A DNA stretch of 64,000 nt, taken from contig CM000154.2 in assembly GCA_000004695.1 (NCBI GenBank), positions 768,001 through 832,000 of the forward strand, in the 5' to 3' direction. The translations under genes were made by a program, and so were the position numbers. This DNA is from Dictyostelium discoideum (taxonomy: Eukaryota). How positions within the stretch are numbered: position 1 is the stretch's first letter; each line of letters opens with the position of its first letter. Positions 5,675 through 14,100 of this stretch are shown here, in pieces. Below the pieces are notes generated by a model, which saw only the letters and a program-made list of their open reading frames with translations, was not told the origin of the DNA and did not search any database.

Positions 5675-6479
5675 TTATTTATTTTCTTTTACTTTTCCTT
5701 TTTTTGGAATTAATTTTTTACTACTGGTTTTCTTCTTTTCTCTTTTCTTTGAATTATTGTCAGACATTTCTTTTAATAGAGTTGAAGCTGGACCAGCAAA
5801 TCCTTGTTGTTCAGTTAAAGATTCTAATAAATTTTTTACAAGATTTAAATTTAAATCAACTTTTTGATTTACTTTATAATTTTCATTATCATCTTCATCA
5901 ACATCTTTGTCATTATTATTAATATTATTATTATTATTATTATTACTTTTTTCAATATCATCAAATTCTTTTGGTAATTTGGTTGACTCCAATTCAAAAG
6001 AAGAAGCAATAATCTTTAAATTTAATTCTTGATCCATTCTTTCCATGTATTGTTTTATGGTTGATTTCTTTAAAAATTCAACATATTGGAATTCTTTTTC
6101 ATCATCATCATCTTCATCTTCATCTTCATATTCTTCAAAACCATCATCTTCATCATCTTCATCATTTTCATCATCTTCATCATCATCTTTGTCATCACTA
6201 TCTTCATAATTATCAATATCTTGGTACATATCATCATCATCGTCATCATCGTCGTCATAATCATCATCATATTTGTTATTATCAGTAAAACCCTTTAGTA
6301 TATCCATGAATTTATTTGAATCAAATGAAATATTATCATCACCACCATTACCATAAGCACTACTTTTAGTTTTATTTTTAGAATTTCCAGATTTTTCGTT
6401 AAATTCTACACCATCAAATGAGGATAGTTGAGAAAGCATTGATTTGAATTGATTCGAAAAATCATTTATTAAATTTGAA

Positions 6480-6565
<86 letters not shown>

Positions 6566-6595
6566 TTCTTTAACTTCTTTTTTACCTTCTTTATT

Positions 6596-6628
<33 letters not shown>

Positions 6629-8026
6629 CTGTTGTTGTTTTTGACGATCATTTTCAAATTCTGTAATTAAATCTTCAAATTTATCAGGATTCTCTTCATT
6701 TAACCAATCATCCTCTGATTCAATTTTACTTTTATCAGATTCTTGTAAAATTTTTATCATTTCATCAACTGATTTTGAATTTGTAACTTGATCAATTAAT
6801 TTATAAATTGATTCTTCTTCTTTATTATTATTATTATTATTATTATTAATATTATTTTTTAAATATTGATTTTTAGCAATTAATAATTTCTCTTTATATA
6901 ATTTTGAACCAATAGTTTCATCATTGAAATAATTATTTGATTTTAATTGTTTTAAATAGTTTAACCAATTCAAATCATCATTGAATCTATGATATGAGGA
7001 TACAGAATTCCTTTTGGATCTATTATAAACCATCTCTAAACCACAAATGATTTTAACACCTAATGATCTTGAATCGTAGGTTGGATGTGAGGGTTTTGGT
7101 AATTGTGGATGAAAATTCTTTGGACTATTCCATTGTTGAAGTTTTAACATTGCATAAAGACAACGAGTGAATCTAATATTGGTTGTTATCAATTGACCTG
7201 AATTACCAAACGAGTCTCTTTCTCTACTCATTGGAAATCTTTTCATTGTGCTAATGGTTTTCATATCATCTGAATCTCTATTATAAAATGTTGTTGTTAT
7301 ATCTGATATTAATTGTGGATATTGATTTAATAAATATCCAATCTCAATTGGTATCGCTGCTAATTTTATTTGATTTTGATCTTTTAAAAAATATTCACCA
7401 TTATAAAATCTAAAAAATGAAAAAATAAAATTAATAAATCTATAAATATATATATATCTAAAATGAAAATGAAAATTAAAATAAAAATAAAATTACCTTT
7501 TTAATCTATTTTTTAAAATTTCATTAATTTCATTTGAAACTTTTGTAATAATATTATTTGAAGATGATGATAATATTGATAAAGCAGTATTTGTATCCAT
7601 TTTATAAGGAATTGTATCTAATTGAGAAGGATCCGAAGGTAATGGTATTATATGAATTTCACCATTTTTTAAGTAAACTCTATTATTAGAATTTGTAGGT
7701 TTTATCCATTTTGGTAATGCTTGAGCAGTTTCAATTAATATAAATTCACCATCATTGTCTTTAATTGAAACAATTAATGATTGAAACTTTTTTGTTAATT
7801 CTAATAAAATATAAACTATAAACCATTCATCATCAATTGATTCTTCAAATTTAGTATTTCCATAAAAATGAATTGGTAGTTGTTGTTGTTGCTGTTGTTT
7901 CTTTTTATGGTCATAAATTTTTAAATTAAATGGTTCTTTTTGCCAAATATAATCTTTAATATAATTTAAAATTAAATATTCTTTAATTTCATTTAATTTA
8001 TTTGTTATAGTGGTATTTTCGTTATT

Positions 8027-8057
<31 letters not shown>

Positions 8058-8221
8058 TTATTATTATTATAATTTATTAAATGAGTGTCAAATATTCTAT
8101 ATTTTACAAAATTAATTTCTTCTTTATGTTTATTATTTAAAATATCATCACCATTATTATAAAAGTCTTCGAAATTATCAACAAACTGTGGAACCGCTCC
8201 ACTATTTTTAGCTTTGTTCAT
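5675..8221 (-). CDS. Ecdysoneless / SGT1-family (ECD) homologue. Exons 7497..8221 and 5675..7419.
   Basis: IWQKEPFNLKIY...FYGNTKFEESIDDEWFIVYILLELTKKFQSLIVSIKDNDGEFILIETAQALPKWIKPTNSNNRVYLKNGEIHIIPLP aligns residue-for-residue with the conserved ECD N-terminal block. FTRCLYAMLKLQQW and the C-terminal LNLVKNLLESLTEQQGFAGPASTLL also match ECD. It has a long D/E acidic tract plus poly-N and poly-Q. The 77-nt intron runs GTAATT...TTTTTTAG in phase 2. The true start is MNKAKNSG at 8221, not the poly-T-derived M of the ORF track. Confidence 0.88.
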
Positions 8222-8457
8222 TGTAATTATTTGAAAAATGAAAATGTGAAAAAAAAAAATAAAAAATAAAAAAAAATAAAAAAAAAAAAATTGAAAAATA
8301 AAATGAAAATTGGAAAGGGGGTACACCATTTAATAAATTTCATTAAAGGAAACCACAAACCCTTTTCCAATTTTTTCTTCATGTTTTAAATTTAATTTTT
8401 TTTAATTTATTGTTTTTTTTTTTTTAAAATGTGTTTTTTATTATTTTTAAAAAAAAA

Positions 8458-8566
8458 ATCATTTGGCAAACACACTTGTTTTAACATTTTCCAAAAAACT
8501 ATTTAAATATATATATTTTTTTTCTAAAAAAAAATATCATTTGACAAACACACTTGTTTTAACATC
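8458..8566 (+). promoter_or_regulatory. Two copies of a 30-nt element, ATCATTTG[G/A]CAAACACACTTGTTTTAACAT, 79 nt apart in the divergent promoter between the ECD homologue and the KAR5/GEX1-like gene.
   Basis: 8458..8487 and 8537..8566 are identical except for one base. Confidence 0.5.
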
Positions 8567-8634
8567 AATAATTTTCAAAATAATTCCATACTCATAATAT
8601 ATAAAATTTTTTTTTTTTTTTTTTTTTTTAATAA

Positions 8635-9986
8635 ATGTTATTTATTTTAAAATTATTATTTTTATTATGTATTATTATTATAAAAATTAATGGAGAATTA
8701 TCAAATTATTATCAATATGAAATTGATAAAAAAATAAATGATAGAATTAATAATGGTAGAGAAAGTTTAGAATCAATTAAAAAGAATTCAATATCAAATA
8801 GATGTTTGGAGGAATGTATGGAAATATTATCAAATGGTTGTAAGGATATGGATGATTTATCAAAGAGTAGATTAGCAGTTAAATTAACCAATTGTCATTT
8901 GGCAAAGAGTGGTCACAAACAGTATCCATGTAGATTTGATATGTCAATACAAGATTGTACATCTAAAATGGATCAAATGGCATTCTCAACCTATACAAAT
9001 TTTTATATATCCACAGAAAATATTTGTTATTATCTATCACAGGAACTATTTCAACAACGTACAGAACAATCAATTAATAATCTTGTTACAAGTACACATA
9101 AAACTCAAACTGTGATTAATATATTACATTCAAAAGCAGATGACATCAATGAACAAGTTGACCTATCATTAAGCAATCAAAAAAAGTTATTACAAAATCA
9201 AAAACAATTAATCGACGATTTAGATAATAGTGCCAACACAATCAATGACATTGGTAAGAAATCCATTGAAATCGAACAATCCATAACTAAACAATCAAGA
9301 CAACAACAACAATTAATCGATTCACATGATCAACTTTCAAAACAATATCATGATCAATCTAAACAATCATTGGAATTAATTAATGAAATTAAACAATCAT
9401 CAGAAACAATGAATCAACAACAAAAACAATCATTAGAAAATCAAAATCATTTAATTCAATTACAATCTCAATCCATTCAATTCATTGAAACCATTGAAAC
9501 CATCACTGATACTTCATTATCAAAATTGAAACAAGTAATAACCTTTCAAGACCAATTATTAGATGGTAATAAAATTATTATTACAATCTTAAATCAATTA
9601 AATTTACTTCAAAATTGGATTTTATCTGAAGTTATTGATTTTAAATCAATTTATTTTTATATTTCAATTTTTTTAATTGTATGTAAATTTTTAAATAAAA
9701 AAAAAAAAAAAAAAAAAAAAAATTATTAACAAAATATTTTAAATTATAATAATAATAAAATGAAAAAAAAAAGATATATTTAATATCATCAACAAAAAGA
9801 ACCAAATCAACAAGAGTACCATTATTAATTGGATTAATTATTGATATTTTTGTTGAAAGATCAATTTGTTCAACAGTTTTATCATCTCCATCAACAACAA
9901 CATCAACATTATTTAATTTATTATCAATTTTATTCAATATTCCAATAATTAAGTTTATAAGGGAAAATTATTTATTATTTACAAAT

Positions 9987-10025
<39 letters not shown>

Positions 10026-10358
10026 GAATTCACAAATATTTTTTCAAATATTGATCAAAGTATACCAACATCAAGAGAAAATATTTATTTAATGATTAAT
10101 AATATTAGAATAATTTTTATAGTTTATTCGTTGGTTATATTATTTTCATCATTTTGGTTTTATAAAGATTATGAAAAAGACAACCACCAAATGTTGGTTA
10201 CAATTTTAAAAACAGTAAAAAAGAGTGAAAAAAAGTATAGCAATTTAAAGAATCTACTTTACGAAAAAGGTTTGCTCGACAAAAATGATAAAAGATTAAA
10301 AGATCATTCTTCTGTTGAAATTACTAAATTAATTGACTCTGTTGATGATAATAATTAA
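8635..10358 (+). CDS. Signal-peptide, Cys-rich, coiled-coil and two-TM protein, candidate KAR5/GEX1/Brambleberry-family nuclear-fusion protein. Exons 8635..9678 and 9774..10358.
   Basis: N-terminal signal peptide MLFILKLLFLLCIIIIKING. A Cys-rich block follows with 7 Cys between RCLEEC and NICYY. A ~180-aa Q-rich coiled coil comes next. The predicted splice (GTATGT donor at 9679, acceptor AG 9772-9773, both phase 0) joins TM1 (IYFYISIFLI|IYLISS) to a second exon carrying a second hydrophobic segment (IRIIFIVYSLVILFSSFWFY) and a short tail. The architecture matches the KAR5/GEX1 family. The family assignment is an inference; the gene model itself is better supported. Confidence 0.6.
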
Positions 10359-10419
10359 TAAAAATGGAATTACAATTTTTAAAATATCTTCACAAAATTT
10401 ACATTTTTACAAAACAAAA

Positions 10420-10456
<37 letters not shown>

Positions 10457-10802
10457 AAAAAATAAATTTACATTTTTTACAAAACAGTCTTCAATAAATT
10501 TTCGGAGATCAAATAACAATATACAATGTTTTTCATTTTACTTTTTTTTCTCTTATCTTTGTTTTATTATAAAAAAATAAATAAATTAAATAAAAAAAAA
10601 AAAAAAAAAAAAAAAAGATTGATCTAAATTTAACTCTAACCCCTTCCCCCACACAAAACTTTAATATTTTTTTTATTTTTTTTTATTTTTTTTTATTTTT
10701 TGATGCTGGTTTAACACCAACCTACTCTATTGTTTAATTTTTGATTTAATTATTATTTTTATTATTATTATTATTATTTTTTTTTTTTTTAACTTTGGGG
10801 GT

Positions 10803-11157: not shown

Positions 11158-11160
<3 letters not shown>

Positions 11161-14100
11161 AAATTAAATAAAATAATTTCAAATTATTTATTAATAATAA
11201 TAATTTCATTAATAATAATAACAACATCAACAATTGTTAATGGTTGTAAAGATGTTGTATTAGATTATACAGAAGATGTACCAAGTAGTTCAACTTCAAC
11301 ATGTTTAGGAACAACGCCATCAGTAACATTTAATAATTATCAGGTTTATAGTGTTTTCAAAATTTCACCAACACCAATTTCAATTGCAACCGATGTAAAT
11401 AAAAAGATAGTAACATTTAAATATGATACAACATATACTTTAAATTATAATGTTGGAGAAGGTTGTACAGAAAATACAAAAGCATTTAAATATGATTCAT
11501 TATCACCACCAGTTGCACAATTCACAGTTACTCAAGGAAAATGCTCATACTCTGAAAGTTCCATAACAATAACAAATCCTCAATCAATATCAGAATATGA
11601 ACTTAAATTAATTAATTCTACTAATGGTGGTGGTAATGGTATTATTAAATTAAATTCAACCAATCCAACTGCAACTATAAGTAAAAGTGGTCAATGGATA
11701 TTATCAGATTCTAGTTTAGGTGCTTCATATGAACCATGTGAAAGAGTGATTTCAATTGATCAACCATCAACAGGCTATCCAGAGTTTACAATTACTTCAC
11801 CAAGTTGTTATGGTAATAATGGTTCAATCGTTGTATCATCAGCTACTGCTTCAAGTTTCACTTCAATTACTTTAACAAATACATTGAATGGTAATTTAAT
11901 TACATCATCAAGTGTTGGTTCATTCACTTCACTTGAAAGTGGTAATTATATATTATCATTGACAAGTAATGCTTGTGGAAAACAATTAATTCCTGTAGCC
12001 CTGGATCCAATAATGCCAAGATTAGCATTCACCTACACCGATGTAACATGTCCATCAAAACCAAAGATTAAAGTATCAATTGATGATCCAAATATCCCAT
12101 CCACTGAAACATTTACAATGACAATCAATGGTATTGCATCAATTGATAATCTATTATCACCAATTATCACATTAGAAAATCAAACTTCTCTTCCATTTAC
12201 ATTCTCTTATAAAAATTGTTTATCAAGTTTTTCATTACCAATGAATCAACCACAAATGAATTTAGCATTTTCAATTGATAGCCAAGAGAATTCATTATAC
12301 GATTGCTCATTAACATCATCATCATCGTCGATTAATTTAAATTATGATAAATCAAGTATTACAGATTTAAATGTTAAATTAGTTAATGATGGTAGTACTA
12401 TAACACCAATTGATTCAAATTTAAATAAATATTCAATTAAAACTAATCAACAATTATCAATTTCATCATCATGTTATGTTAATCCATTATTCATTGAATT
12501 ACCACAACCTGAACCAATTATAAATGTTGATGGTGGAATTAATGGAATAGGTTGTTATGAGAATACTACGATTTCAGTTTATAATCATTTAGATTTTTCA
12601 TCAATAAAACTAGTACCATTAGATTCACCAACTACCTCTATACAATTAAATAGTGAAACTGGTCAATTTACAAATATTTATCGTAAATCTTATAATTTAG
12701 TTTACCAATATTGTTCAACATCAATTGAATCAAGTAAATTATTAAATCTTGCAAGTTCAACTTTAACTTCCTCTCAATATATTTTGGAACAAGATAGTAC
12801 TACAAATGATTTAGATTGTAAAACTGGTGGTGTTACTGTAAAAGCAACTTTTATAAAATCAGATTCAACAAAATTAGATCCAATTTATTCTTTTTTTAAT
12901 CCAAATCAAATTACACCAATTCAATTTAAAATCAATGATAATTGTATAATTGATTTAAATTTTAATCAAAATATTACTTTTAATTCAAATTGTAAGTATA
13001 ATACTAAAATTATAAATATTTATTTTAATAATGATTACTAATAATAATAATTGTTTTATGAAAATAGATTTAAATTTAAATAATAAACCAATAATTAAAA
13101 TTAATAATTCAACATGTTTATATTCAAATGATGGATCAATTGAAATTGATGGAAATGGTATTGATATTGGTAGTGTTTTAATTGGTGATCAATTATTTAG
13201 AAAATCTTCAAATGGAGTATATGGTGGTTTAAATGTTGGTAGTTATCAAGTTTCTTTAATTTATAGTACAATTAGTTCAAATCTATTTTGTGGTGGTCAA
13301 AAATATGATGTTGGTACCGTTACCATTGGTTCAATTGATTCTAGTTTTAATGTTGTTGTAAATTCAGTTTCAAATGCTAATTGTCAAACTAATGGTAATG
13401 ATGGTTCAATTACAATTGAAAATCCAACAACATTTAAATCAATTTCAATAGCAAGTGGTGGTGGTGGTGGTACAAATGTTGCAGTTAATGGTGTTTTATC
13501 AAATTTACAATCAGGTTTACATAAAGTTGATTTCGAAAGTATTGATTCAAAATGTAAAGGTTCATTCCCAGTTTTTGTTGGTAGTGCAGGTACAGAACCA
13601 ACTATTACTTTAAATTTAATTCAACCTTCAACATGTTATTCTGATCCTTCAATTTCATCAGTTTCAAATGTTATTGGTGATGGTATTCTCTCTATTGGTA
13701 TATTTAATTCATCAGGTGATAGTACGGAAGTTTCAAAAGTAATTGATGTAAATTCAAATAATTTACAATTCACAAGTCAAACTGGTGCTATACCAATTTC
13801 ACCAGGTAATAAAGTGTTAATCATTTATTCCGGTACATGTGCTTATAGAAAAACTATAACAATTCCACATACCGATCCATCATTATCATATAGTTCAACC
13901 TTTGATTACAATTGTTTTAATCAATTTGAAAATGGTATAATTTCAAGTTCATTAGAATCAAATTTCAATGTTGTTATAAATTCAGTTAAAGTTACAACAA
14001 CAACACCAACACCAACACCAACTACTACAACTTCAATTATTAATAACTCACCATTTGTAATTAATAATTTACAAAGTGGACAATATTCAGCATTAGTTAA

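Follow-up and report, generated by a model that had tools for sequence, protein, structure and literature searches.

DDB_G0287831 of Dictyostelium discoideum, a GEX1/KAR5/Brambleberry family member with a proposed role in nuclear fusion

Which protein might bring two nuclei together in the sexual cycle of Dictyostelium, where two nuclei fuse in binucleate cells and the control of this stage "is not understood" (PMC6369745)? We examined a 64,000-nucleotide (nt) stretch of the Dictyostelium discoideum genome (contig CM000154.2, positions 768,001 to 832,000 of the forward strand; hereafter, the window), in which the gene DDB_G0287831 raises this question. Public records annotate the gene as "hypothetical protein", and a preliminary description, made from the letters of the window, had proposed that it encodes a KAR5/GEX1/Brambleberry-type nuclear-fusion protein. 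Our analysis favors the same reading: we put the probability that DDB_G0287831 belongs to this family and has a nuclear-fusion role of the kind set out below at about 0.8.

The gene has two exons on the forward strand, 8635-9678 and 9774-10358, and a spliced product of 542 amino acids (aa). Exon 1 comprises 348 codons and exon 2, in frame after splicing, 194 codons followed by a TAA stop at 10356-10358. The product is identical at every residue to the D. discoideum AX4 protein XP_637084.1 / EAL63562.1 / Q54JR8. The intervening 95 nt at 9679-9773, proposed in the preliminary description as an intron that the open reading frame (ORF) track misses, begin with GTATGT, end with AG, are about 90% A+T, and interrupt the frame in phase 0. 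This intron is real and is the annotated one, because the spliced product equals the AX4 protein, exon 2 carries conserved motifs, and the D. purpureum ORF is interrupted at the same site, inside the first C-terminal transmembrane segment (TM1). In relatives, the gene span exceeds the coding length by 96 nt (D. firmibasis), 75 nt (D. citrinum), and 104 nt (a second D. discoideum strain). The frame across the exon junction is kept in dictyostelids, amphioxus, and Nematostella (...YxxxSTxRTxSAR...), and the motifs on which dictyostelids, amphioxus, and a sea anemone agree best are encoded by exon 2.

The gene could also be read without splicing: the ORF that starts at 8635 stays open for 16 codons beyond exon 1 and reaches a stop at 9729 after 364 codons, so that the protein would end at aa 364 in a poly-Lys tail and have just one, truncated, hydrophobic segment. 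We regard this gene model as highly improbable. It is contradicted by the canonical GTATGT..AG ends of the 95-nt stretch, by the 194 in-frame codons of exon 2, by the exon 2 motifs common to amphioxus, Nematostella, and plants (STxRTxxAR, ER in TM2, TM3, and KDYxxxN), and by the D. purpureum break at the same position and the identical splicing of the annotated AX4 protein. Since the intron lies within TM1, the unspliced ORF truncates this segment and loses TM2, TM3, and the tail; the second hydrophobic segment thus appears only once the intron is removed, as had been stated.

We then considered the architecture of the spliced protein, for which the preliminary description had given the order cleaved signal peptide, Cys-rich luminal domain, long Q-rich coiled coil, and two closely spaced C-terminal hydrophobic segments. 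The first three parts were recovered, and the last was correct as far as it went. Residues 1 to 20 are strongly hydrophobic and end in ING followed by E, with G at position −1 and I at position −3, as is typical of a signal peptide; in the AlphaFold2 (AF2) model, a low-confidence linker comes after a helix at 2-20, and averaged hydropathy places an N-terminal hydrophobic segment in the nondictyostelid homologues as well. The predicted signal peptide is presumably cleaved. The Cys-rich domain (CRD) that follows, which is predicted to lie on the lumenal side, is nonrepetitive and contains seven Cys in D. discoideum. Six of these, C57, C69, C87, C99, C108, and C131, are invariant or nearly so when 78 full-length or 50 domain sequences are aligned, while C61 is restricted to dictyostelids. 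AF2 models the CRD as an all-helical bundle, with a predicted local distance difference test score (pLDDT) above 90 in the full-length model and of 91 when the domain is modeled alone.

The Q-rich region of about 190 aa contains 17% Q, and its heptad a/d hydrophobic contrast lies 5 standard deviations above that of shuffled sequence. AF2 predicts two long helices here, 114-238 and 253-353, separated by a low-confidence break at 239-252 that might form a hairpin. Compared with amphioxus or Nematostella, the coiled-coil stretch is extended by about 90 aa. Relative to D. purpureum, too, that of the D. discoideum group and of P. violaceum is much longer; since exon 1 of D. purpureum is truly shorter, the length difference is not an annotation artifact.

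Does this order of parts reflect membership in the nuclear-fusion family? The definition of the CRD family that unites GEX1, KAR5, and Brambleberry is reportedly owed to Ning et al. 2013. Its published characteristics are a signal peptide, a six-Cys CRD, one or two coiled coils, and, at the C terminus, two or three transmembrane segments, the six Cys being conserved in every orthologue and the CRD being the only part well conserved in sequence (PMC4291462, PMC7586128). For this last reason, the CRD was chosen for testing. Word-indexed searches with the full-length protein or its alignment returned only dictyostelids and amphioxus among the 8000 most word-sharing candidates that were scored, and we think that the Q/T-rich low-complexity parts filled this candidate list. 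The CRD was therefore cut out for searching, which avoided these parts. A word-indexed search with the CRD alignment returned proteins that were all of 239 aa or less and were used for their names, not for architecture.

An exhaustive HMMER search of 1.84 billion cluster representatives with a profile of the dictyostelid and amphioxus CRDs yielded 1249 representatives at an E value of 1e-3 or below, 701 of them at 1e-10 or below. Nearly all of the best matches retrieved contain exactly six Cys in the domain, and in most of those that are full length, one hydrophobic segment lies at the N terminus and two or three lie at the C terminus. The named matches span vertebrates, echinoderms, cnidarians, a brachiopod, Balamuthia, and Acrasis. 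Among them are the Nematostella protein A7RG01, named "Protein brambleberry" (BLASTP, 27% identity over 388 aa from the signal peptide to TM2, E = 1e-38), a carp "protein brambleberry-like" (35% identity, E = 4e-25), an axolotl "protein brambleberry-like", and a Holothuria "Protein GAMETE EXPRESSED 1" in the cluster of a 150-bit match. The amphioxus protein aligns at 33% identity over the CRD (E = 3e-31), with a second alignment over the coiled coil, TM1, and TM2. Uncharacterized members come from bichir, shark, herring, lizard, sea urchin, starfish, and Lingula, and those of Balamuthia and Acrasis are annotated as "TRP domain-containing protein" and "2 TM domain-containing transmembrane protein".

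The link to plants was made with nine land-plant GEX1 CRDs, including that of Arabidopsis thaliana GEX1 (AtGEX1), taken from the supplement of the Arabidopsis GEX1 paper. Comparison of the dictyostelid and amphioxus CRDs with this set by hhalign gave a probability of 99.06% and an E value of 1.8e-18 over 86 columns, with all six Cys aligned, and the Physcomitrium GEX1 CRD was matched by BLASTP at 33% identity (E = 9e-13). Alignment of the Cys spacing, a check named in advance, found the six Cys in register with those of plant GEX1 and a spacing compatible with that of yeast Kar5.

A chance likeness would be a different explanation, namely, that DDB_G0287831 encodes a Cys-containing, Q-rich low-complexity membrane protein that merely resembles the family. 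Low complexity rich in Q, N, and T is common in the D. discoideum genome and swamped the first word-indexed searches, and the missing Pfam match, taken up below, would also agree with it. However, the similarity lies in the nonrepetitive CRD and the transmembrane region, with pairwise E values of 1e-25 to 1e-38, and the profile-profile E value of 1.8e-18 comes with six Cys in register. We consider a chance likeness to be already refuted. The CRD profile family, the brambleberry-named matches, and the plant GEX1 alignment all bear out the proposed protein type, and membership in the GEX1/KAR5/Brambleberry family is all but certain, being established as far as sequence allows.

At the C terminus, the preliminary description had the two closely spaced hydrophobic segments, TM1 and TM2, but missed a third, TM3 (aa 457-478). 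All three segments (approximately aa 336-354, 363-383, and 457-478) are conserved and are also present in the averaged hydropathy of nondictyostelid relatives. In the basic loop between TM1 and TM2, T358, S360, and R362 are invariant in the dictyostelid and amphioxus alignment, and R362 is nearly invariant in 78 sequences. Immediately around the end of TM3, Y478, K479, Y481, and N485 are invariant in the former alignment, and D480 is nearly invariant in the 78 sequences. If the signal peptide is cleaved as predicted, the positive-inside rule would put the CRD and the coiled coil in the lumen and turn the basic loop and the C-terminal tail toward the cytoplasm or nucleoplasm. A lumenal position is also predicted for the Thr/Ser-rich loop that joins TM2 to TM3, which therefore might be O-glycosylated. 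This loop reaches its greatest length in the D. discoideum/citrinum/firmibasis group; D. purpureum and P. violaceum have a shorter one, and in amphioxus the region is gapped. The AF2 pLDDT falls below 50 at aa 423-445. The loop includes TTTSTTTSTTTTT, and it is here that protein length varies among D. discoideum strains (542, 541, and 533 aa).

By simple hydropathy, Brambleberry-type proteins of vertebrates, cnidarians, and amphioxus likewise have three C-terminal hydrophobic segments and a [KR]DYxxxN motif after TM3. Bmb and Kar5 have been described with two transmembrane segments (PMC7586128). From these sequences, it appears that the three-segment topology and the cytosolic KDYxxxNHQ motif also hold in the animal Brambleberry-type proteins. 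If this is true, the two-segment model would have to be revised, and a conserved partner in the cytoplasm or nucleoplasm would be implied.

What, then, would the protein do? Nuclear fusion in Chlamydomonas, Plasmodium, Arabidopsis, and zebrafish requires the proteins GEX1 and Bmb, which are located in the nuclear membrane (PMC7586128). AtGEX1 is a nuclear-membrane protein needed for the fusion of polar nuclei and of gamete nuclei (Arabidopsis GEX1 paper). Yeast Kar5 resides mostly within the nuclear envelope's lumen and is found on the inner and outer membranes at the fusion site; its function needs all six Cys and both coils, and it acts after outer-membrane fusion, coupling the membranes and allowing the inner membranes to fuse (PMC4291462). 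In D. discoideum, gametes fuse, often several together. By analogy with the characterized proteins, DDB_G0287831 most likely acts at nuclear fusion after gamete fusion, and we judge a role in karyogamy to be probable. The signal peptide would direct a little over 300 N-terminal residues into the lumen of the endoplasmic reticulum (ER) and perinuclear space, where they would form the compact all-helical six-Cys domain followed by the long Q-rich coiled coil. By homology with Kar5, GEX1, and Brambleberry, gametes or young zygotes would carry the protein in their nuclear envelope. Where two nuclei touch, the lumenal CRD and coiled coil could, by homology, self-associate or couple the outer and inner nuclear membranes. 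The protein would be required for membrane fusion to reach completion, and this completed fusion would turn the binucleate cell into a uninucleate diploid zygote, which would go on to the macrocyst.

Several points weigh against this reading. A Pfam scan of DDB_G0287831 matched no family at E ≤ 10, including Tht1/Kar5 (PF04163). The Arabidopsis GEX1 CRD alone gave no significant BLASTP match, so the plant link needs profiles or the moss sequence. The link to fungal Kar5 and zebrafish Bmb draws on database names, Cys spacing, and the literature, and the signal peptide was called from hydropathy. No paper in the searchable literature names DDB_G0287831, its protein, or its UniProt identifiers or reports an experiment on it. 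Finally, Cochliopodium fuses nuclei extensively without a detectable GEX1 (PMC9198077), and therefore the family is not universally required.

The Pfam result deserves closer attention, as a Kar5/Tht1 match had been named beforehand as a test, and the outcome was formally negative. It is not diagnostic, because PF04163 misses the relatives too: it lies outside the 25 Pfam families most matched by 78 scanned relatives, and it gave no match at E ≤ 10 in ten relatives scanned singly, one of which is the UniProt "Protein brambleberry". No Pfam domain is precomputed for the "brambleberry-like" proteins of carp and axolotl. Given that no relative scanned has a Tht1/Kar5 match, we rejected the Pfam scan as a membership test. 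DDB_G0287831 is placed in the wider family only, outside the Pfam entry, because neither the gene nor its relatives match PF04163. Since PF04163 misses the scanned nonfungal members, "sex gene" inventories of GEX1/KAR5 that are scored with it give false absences.

A true family member could also have a main task other than karyogamy, such as vegetative remodeling of the nuclear envelope and ER, resealing after a partly closed mitosis, or rare parasexual fusions. There is precedent for this in zebrafish Brambleberry, which serves karyomere fusion in embryonic mitoses besides pronuclear fusion (PMC7586128, PMC4291462), and parasexual diploids of Dictyostelium arise at 1e-6 to 1e-5 (PMC6369745). 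The gene moreover has a 413-bp divergent promoter region in common with a housekeeping-type SGT1/ecdysoneless (ECD) gene. Against this, Dictyostelium is not known to form karyomeres. The family is also induced in, and needed for, the sexual phase of yeast, Chlamydomonas, Plasmodium, and Arabidopsis (PMC7586128). We consider a chiefly nonsexual function unlikely. It is distinctly doubtful that the protein is specifically adapted to Dictyostelium sex, with its promiscuous syncytia and its nuclear fusion delayed to the binucleate stage. In such a case, the Q-rich coiled coil, longer by about 90 aa, and the Thr/Ser-rich loop between TM2 and TM3 could tune the timing of fusion or the number of nuclei that fuse.

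The identification is correct, but it is already known in kind and occurrence. The preliminary description had expected a KAR5/GEX1 orthologue in dictyostelids, and surveys had indeed reported one: GEX1 was detectable in Dictyostelium and Polysphondylium genomes (Hofstatter et al. 2018; PMC6263441), and GEX1/KAR5 was marked present in an Amoebozoa set that included D. discoideum (Tekle et al. 2017; PMC5892394). Because our searches recovered a single D. discoideum cluster of family sequences, DDB_G0287831 is almost certainly the gene that these surveys detected. The biology is what a specialist would expect. What is gained is a specific, testable gene tied to the karyogamy step of the Dictyostelium sexual cycle, a correction to its annotation, and an obvious knockout target. 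A knockout could show whether macrocysts need the fusion of zygote nuclei in order to develop, how nuclei pair in multigamete syncytia, and whether the GEX1/KAR5 mechanism is conserved in Amoebozoa. The features of the gene and its surroundings are collected in Table 1.

Table 1. Features of DDB_G0287831 and its upstream region, with inter-Cys spacings of the CRD in three proteins
Feature	Position in window	Strand	Basis
SGT1/ECD homologue	5675..8221	-	Pfam PF07093, E 9e-56 and 6e-43 on two ORFs
Divergent intergenic region, 413 bp, common to DDB_G0287831 and the SGT1/ECD gene	8222..8634	.	Gene borders, Pfam
Promoter element copy 1 (ATCATTTGGCAAACACACTTGTTTTAACAT)	8458..8487	+	Alignment with the one similar D. 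citrinum copy
Promoter element copy 2, 29/30 identical	8536..8565	+	Part of 78-bp tandem duplication
Exon 1 (aa 1-348): signal peptide, CRD, coiled coil, first two-thirds of TM1	8635..9678	+	ORF, splice-site reading, identity to XP_637084.1
Predicted signal peptide, aa 1-20 (MLFILKLLFLLCIIIIKING, followed by E)	8635..8694	+	Hydropathy 2.0-2.55
CRD, aa 31-160, six family Cys	8725..9114	+	Profile search, invariant Cys columns, hhalign, AF2
Q-rich coiled-coil region, aa 141-333	9055..9633	+	17% Q, heptad contrast z = 5.0, AF2 helices
TM1, aa 336-354, split by intron	9640..9791 (9640-9678 + 9774-9791)	+	Hydropathy of protein and family
Intron, 95 nt, within TM1 codons	9679..9773	+	GTATGT..AG, D. 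purpureum break, gene spans of relatives
Exon 2 (aa 349-542 + TAA): TM1 end, basic loop, TM2, Thr-rich loop, TM3, charged tail	9774..10358	+	ORF/splice reading, alignment
Basic loop TKRTKSTR, aa 355-362	9792..9815	+	Family motif STxRTxxAR
TM2, aa 363-383	9816..9878	+	Hydropathy; E376 nearly invariant
Thr/Ser-rich loop between TM2 and TM3, aa 385-451	9882..10082	+	27% T, 15% S
TM3, aa 457-478	10098..10163	+	Hydropathy 1.7-2.1; conserved across nondictyostelid homologues
Juxtamembrane motif KDYEKDNHQMLV, aa 479-490	10164..10199	+	Alignment; like AtGEX1 509-RDYEVLNHQILL
Lys/Asp-rich tail	aa 479-542	+	Composition
Inter-Cys spacing, Dictyostelium: 12-18-12-9-23			
Inter-Cys spacing, AtGEX1: 12-20-13-9-22			
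Inter-Cys spacing, yeast Kar5: 12-23-14-11-25			C56, 68, 91, 105, 116, 141 (PMC4291462)

The divergent pairing with an ECD homologue, which the preliminary description had also pointed out, was confirmed by the PF07093 match of the neighbor and by the arrangement in relatives: the head-to-head position relative to an annotated SGT1 gene is kept in D. purpureum and D. citrinum. In D. firmibasis and the second D. discoideum strain, the divergent upstream gene encodes about 800 aa and has no Pfam match on record. The SGT1/ECD gene of the window consists of two ORFs, 7493-8221 and 5675-7264, with a presumed intron of about 230 nt between them, and its product contains long poly-Asn, poly-Gln, and Asp/Glu-rich tracts.

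The duplicated 30-nt element noted earlier in the intervening promoter region was likewise found, its two copies agreeing at 29 of 30 positions; such a pair occurred in none of 100 shuffles. Both copies belong to a 78-bp tandem duplication in the stretch 8424-8565 and are present in the second D. discoideum strain, and strain ACTFIR carries a 4-nt ACAA insertion in both. Copy 2 is absent from D. citrinum and D. firmibasis; the former has one similar copy (ACATTTGGCAGACACTCTTGTTTAAC) and the latter only a weak resemblance. The idea of a conserved paired element was therefore rejected, as the 78-bp tandem duplication is specific to D. discoideum and the element has a single copy in D. citrinum. 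On sequence comparison, the duplication is recent and species-specific, and the core of the element may be a cis-element.

Downstream of the gene, a 22-nt element (AAATTTACATTTTT[T]ACAAAACA) occurs twice, at 10395-10416 and 10464-10486. The copies are 69 nt apart, lie 37 to 128 nt 3′ of the stop codon, and have a long poly(A) run between them; these 2 matches compare with 0 expected from 100 shuffles. The element could belong to a 3′ untranslated region or terminator, or it could be a small duplication. Further along, a forward ORF at 11158-13041 encodes 627 aa with an N-terminal hydrophobic segment and a Ser/Thr/Cys-rich composition, for which Pfam gave no match. Related species have a gene here that is annotated with about 1430 aa, and the ORF is therefore probably a first exon only.

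Comparison with known systems places the animal Brambleberry orthologues, represented here by database-named "brambleberry" and "brambleberry-like" proteins other than zebrafish Bmb itself, as the closest sequence relatives outside the dictyostelids. CRD identity to the amphioxus, cnidarian, fish, and echinoderm proteins is 33 to 38%, and the similarity is collinear with the Dictyostelium protein from the signal peptide through TM2. The animal proteins differ in having a shorter coiled coil and long disordered C-terminal tails. Zebrafish Bmb has been described with two transmembrane segments (PMC7586128), whereas three conserved hydrophobic segments were seen here. Bmb serves karyomere and pronuclear fusion in embryos with open mitosis.

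Fungal Kar5p/Tht1 has the same order of parts, namely, a signal peptide, a CRD with six essential Cys, coiled coils, and C-terminal transmembrane segments (PMC4291462), and the first Cys pair occupies nearly the same positions (56/68 in Kar5 and 57/69 in Dictyostelium). Kar5 is lumenal with a small cytoplasmic loop between its transmembrane segments (PMC4291462). It differs from the Dictyostelium protein in having two such segments and longer inter-Cys loops, and its Pfam family PF04163 has no detectable Dictyostelium match. Kar5 is anchored at the spindle pole body via Mps3 and recruits the fungus-specific Prm3.

For the GEX1 proteins of Arabidopsis, Chlamydomonas, and Plasmodium, function and localization have been demonstrated, whereas the Dictyostelium protein is known from its sequence. 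In the latter, the Q-rich coiled coil is longer and a Thr-rich loop separates TM2 from TM3, and the CRD identity in the profile alignment is only about 26%. AtGEX1 (At5g55490) likewise has a signal peptide, a six-Cys CRD with the same Cys order and near-identical spacing, coiled coils, and three C-terminal transmembrane segments, and its motif after TM3, RDYEVLNHQILL (from residue 509), is like the Dictyostelium KDYEKDNHQMLV, a motif found family-wide.

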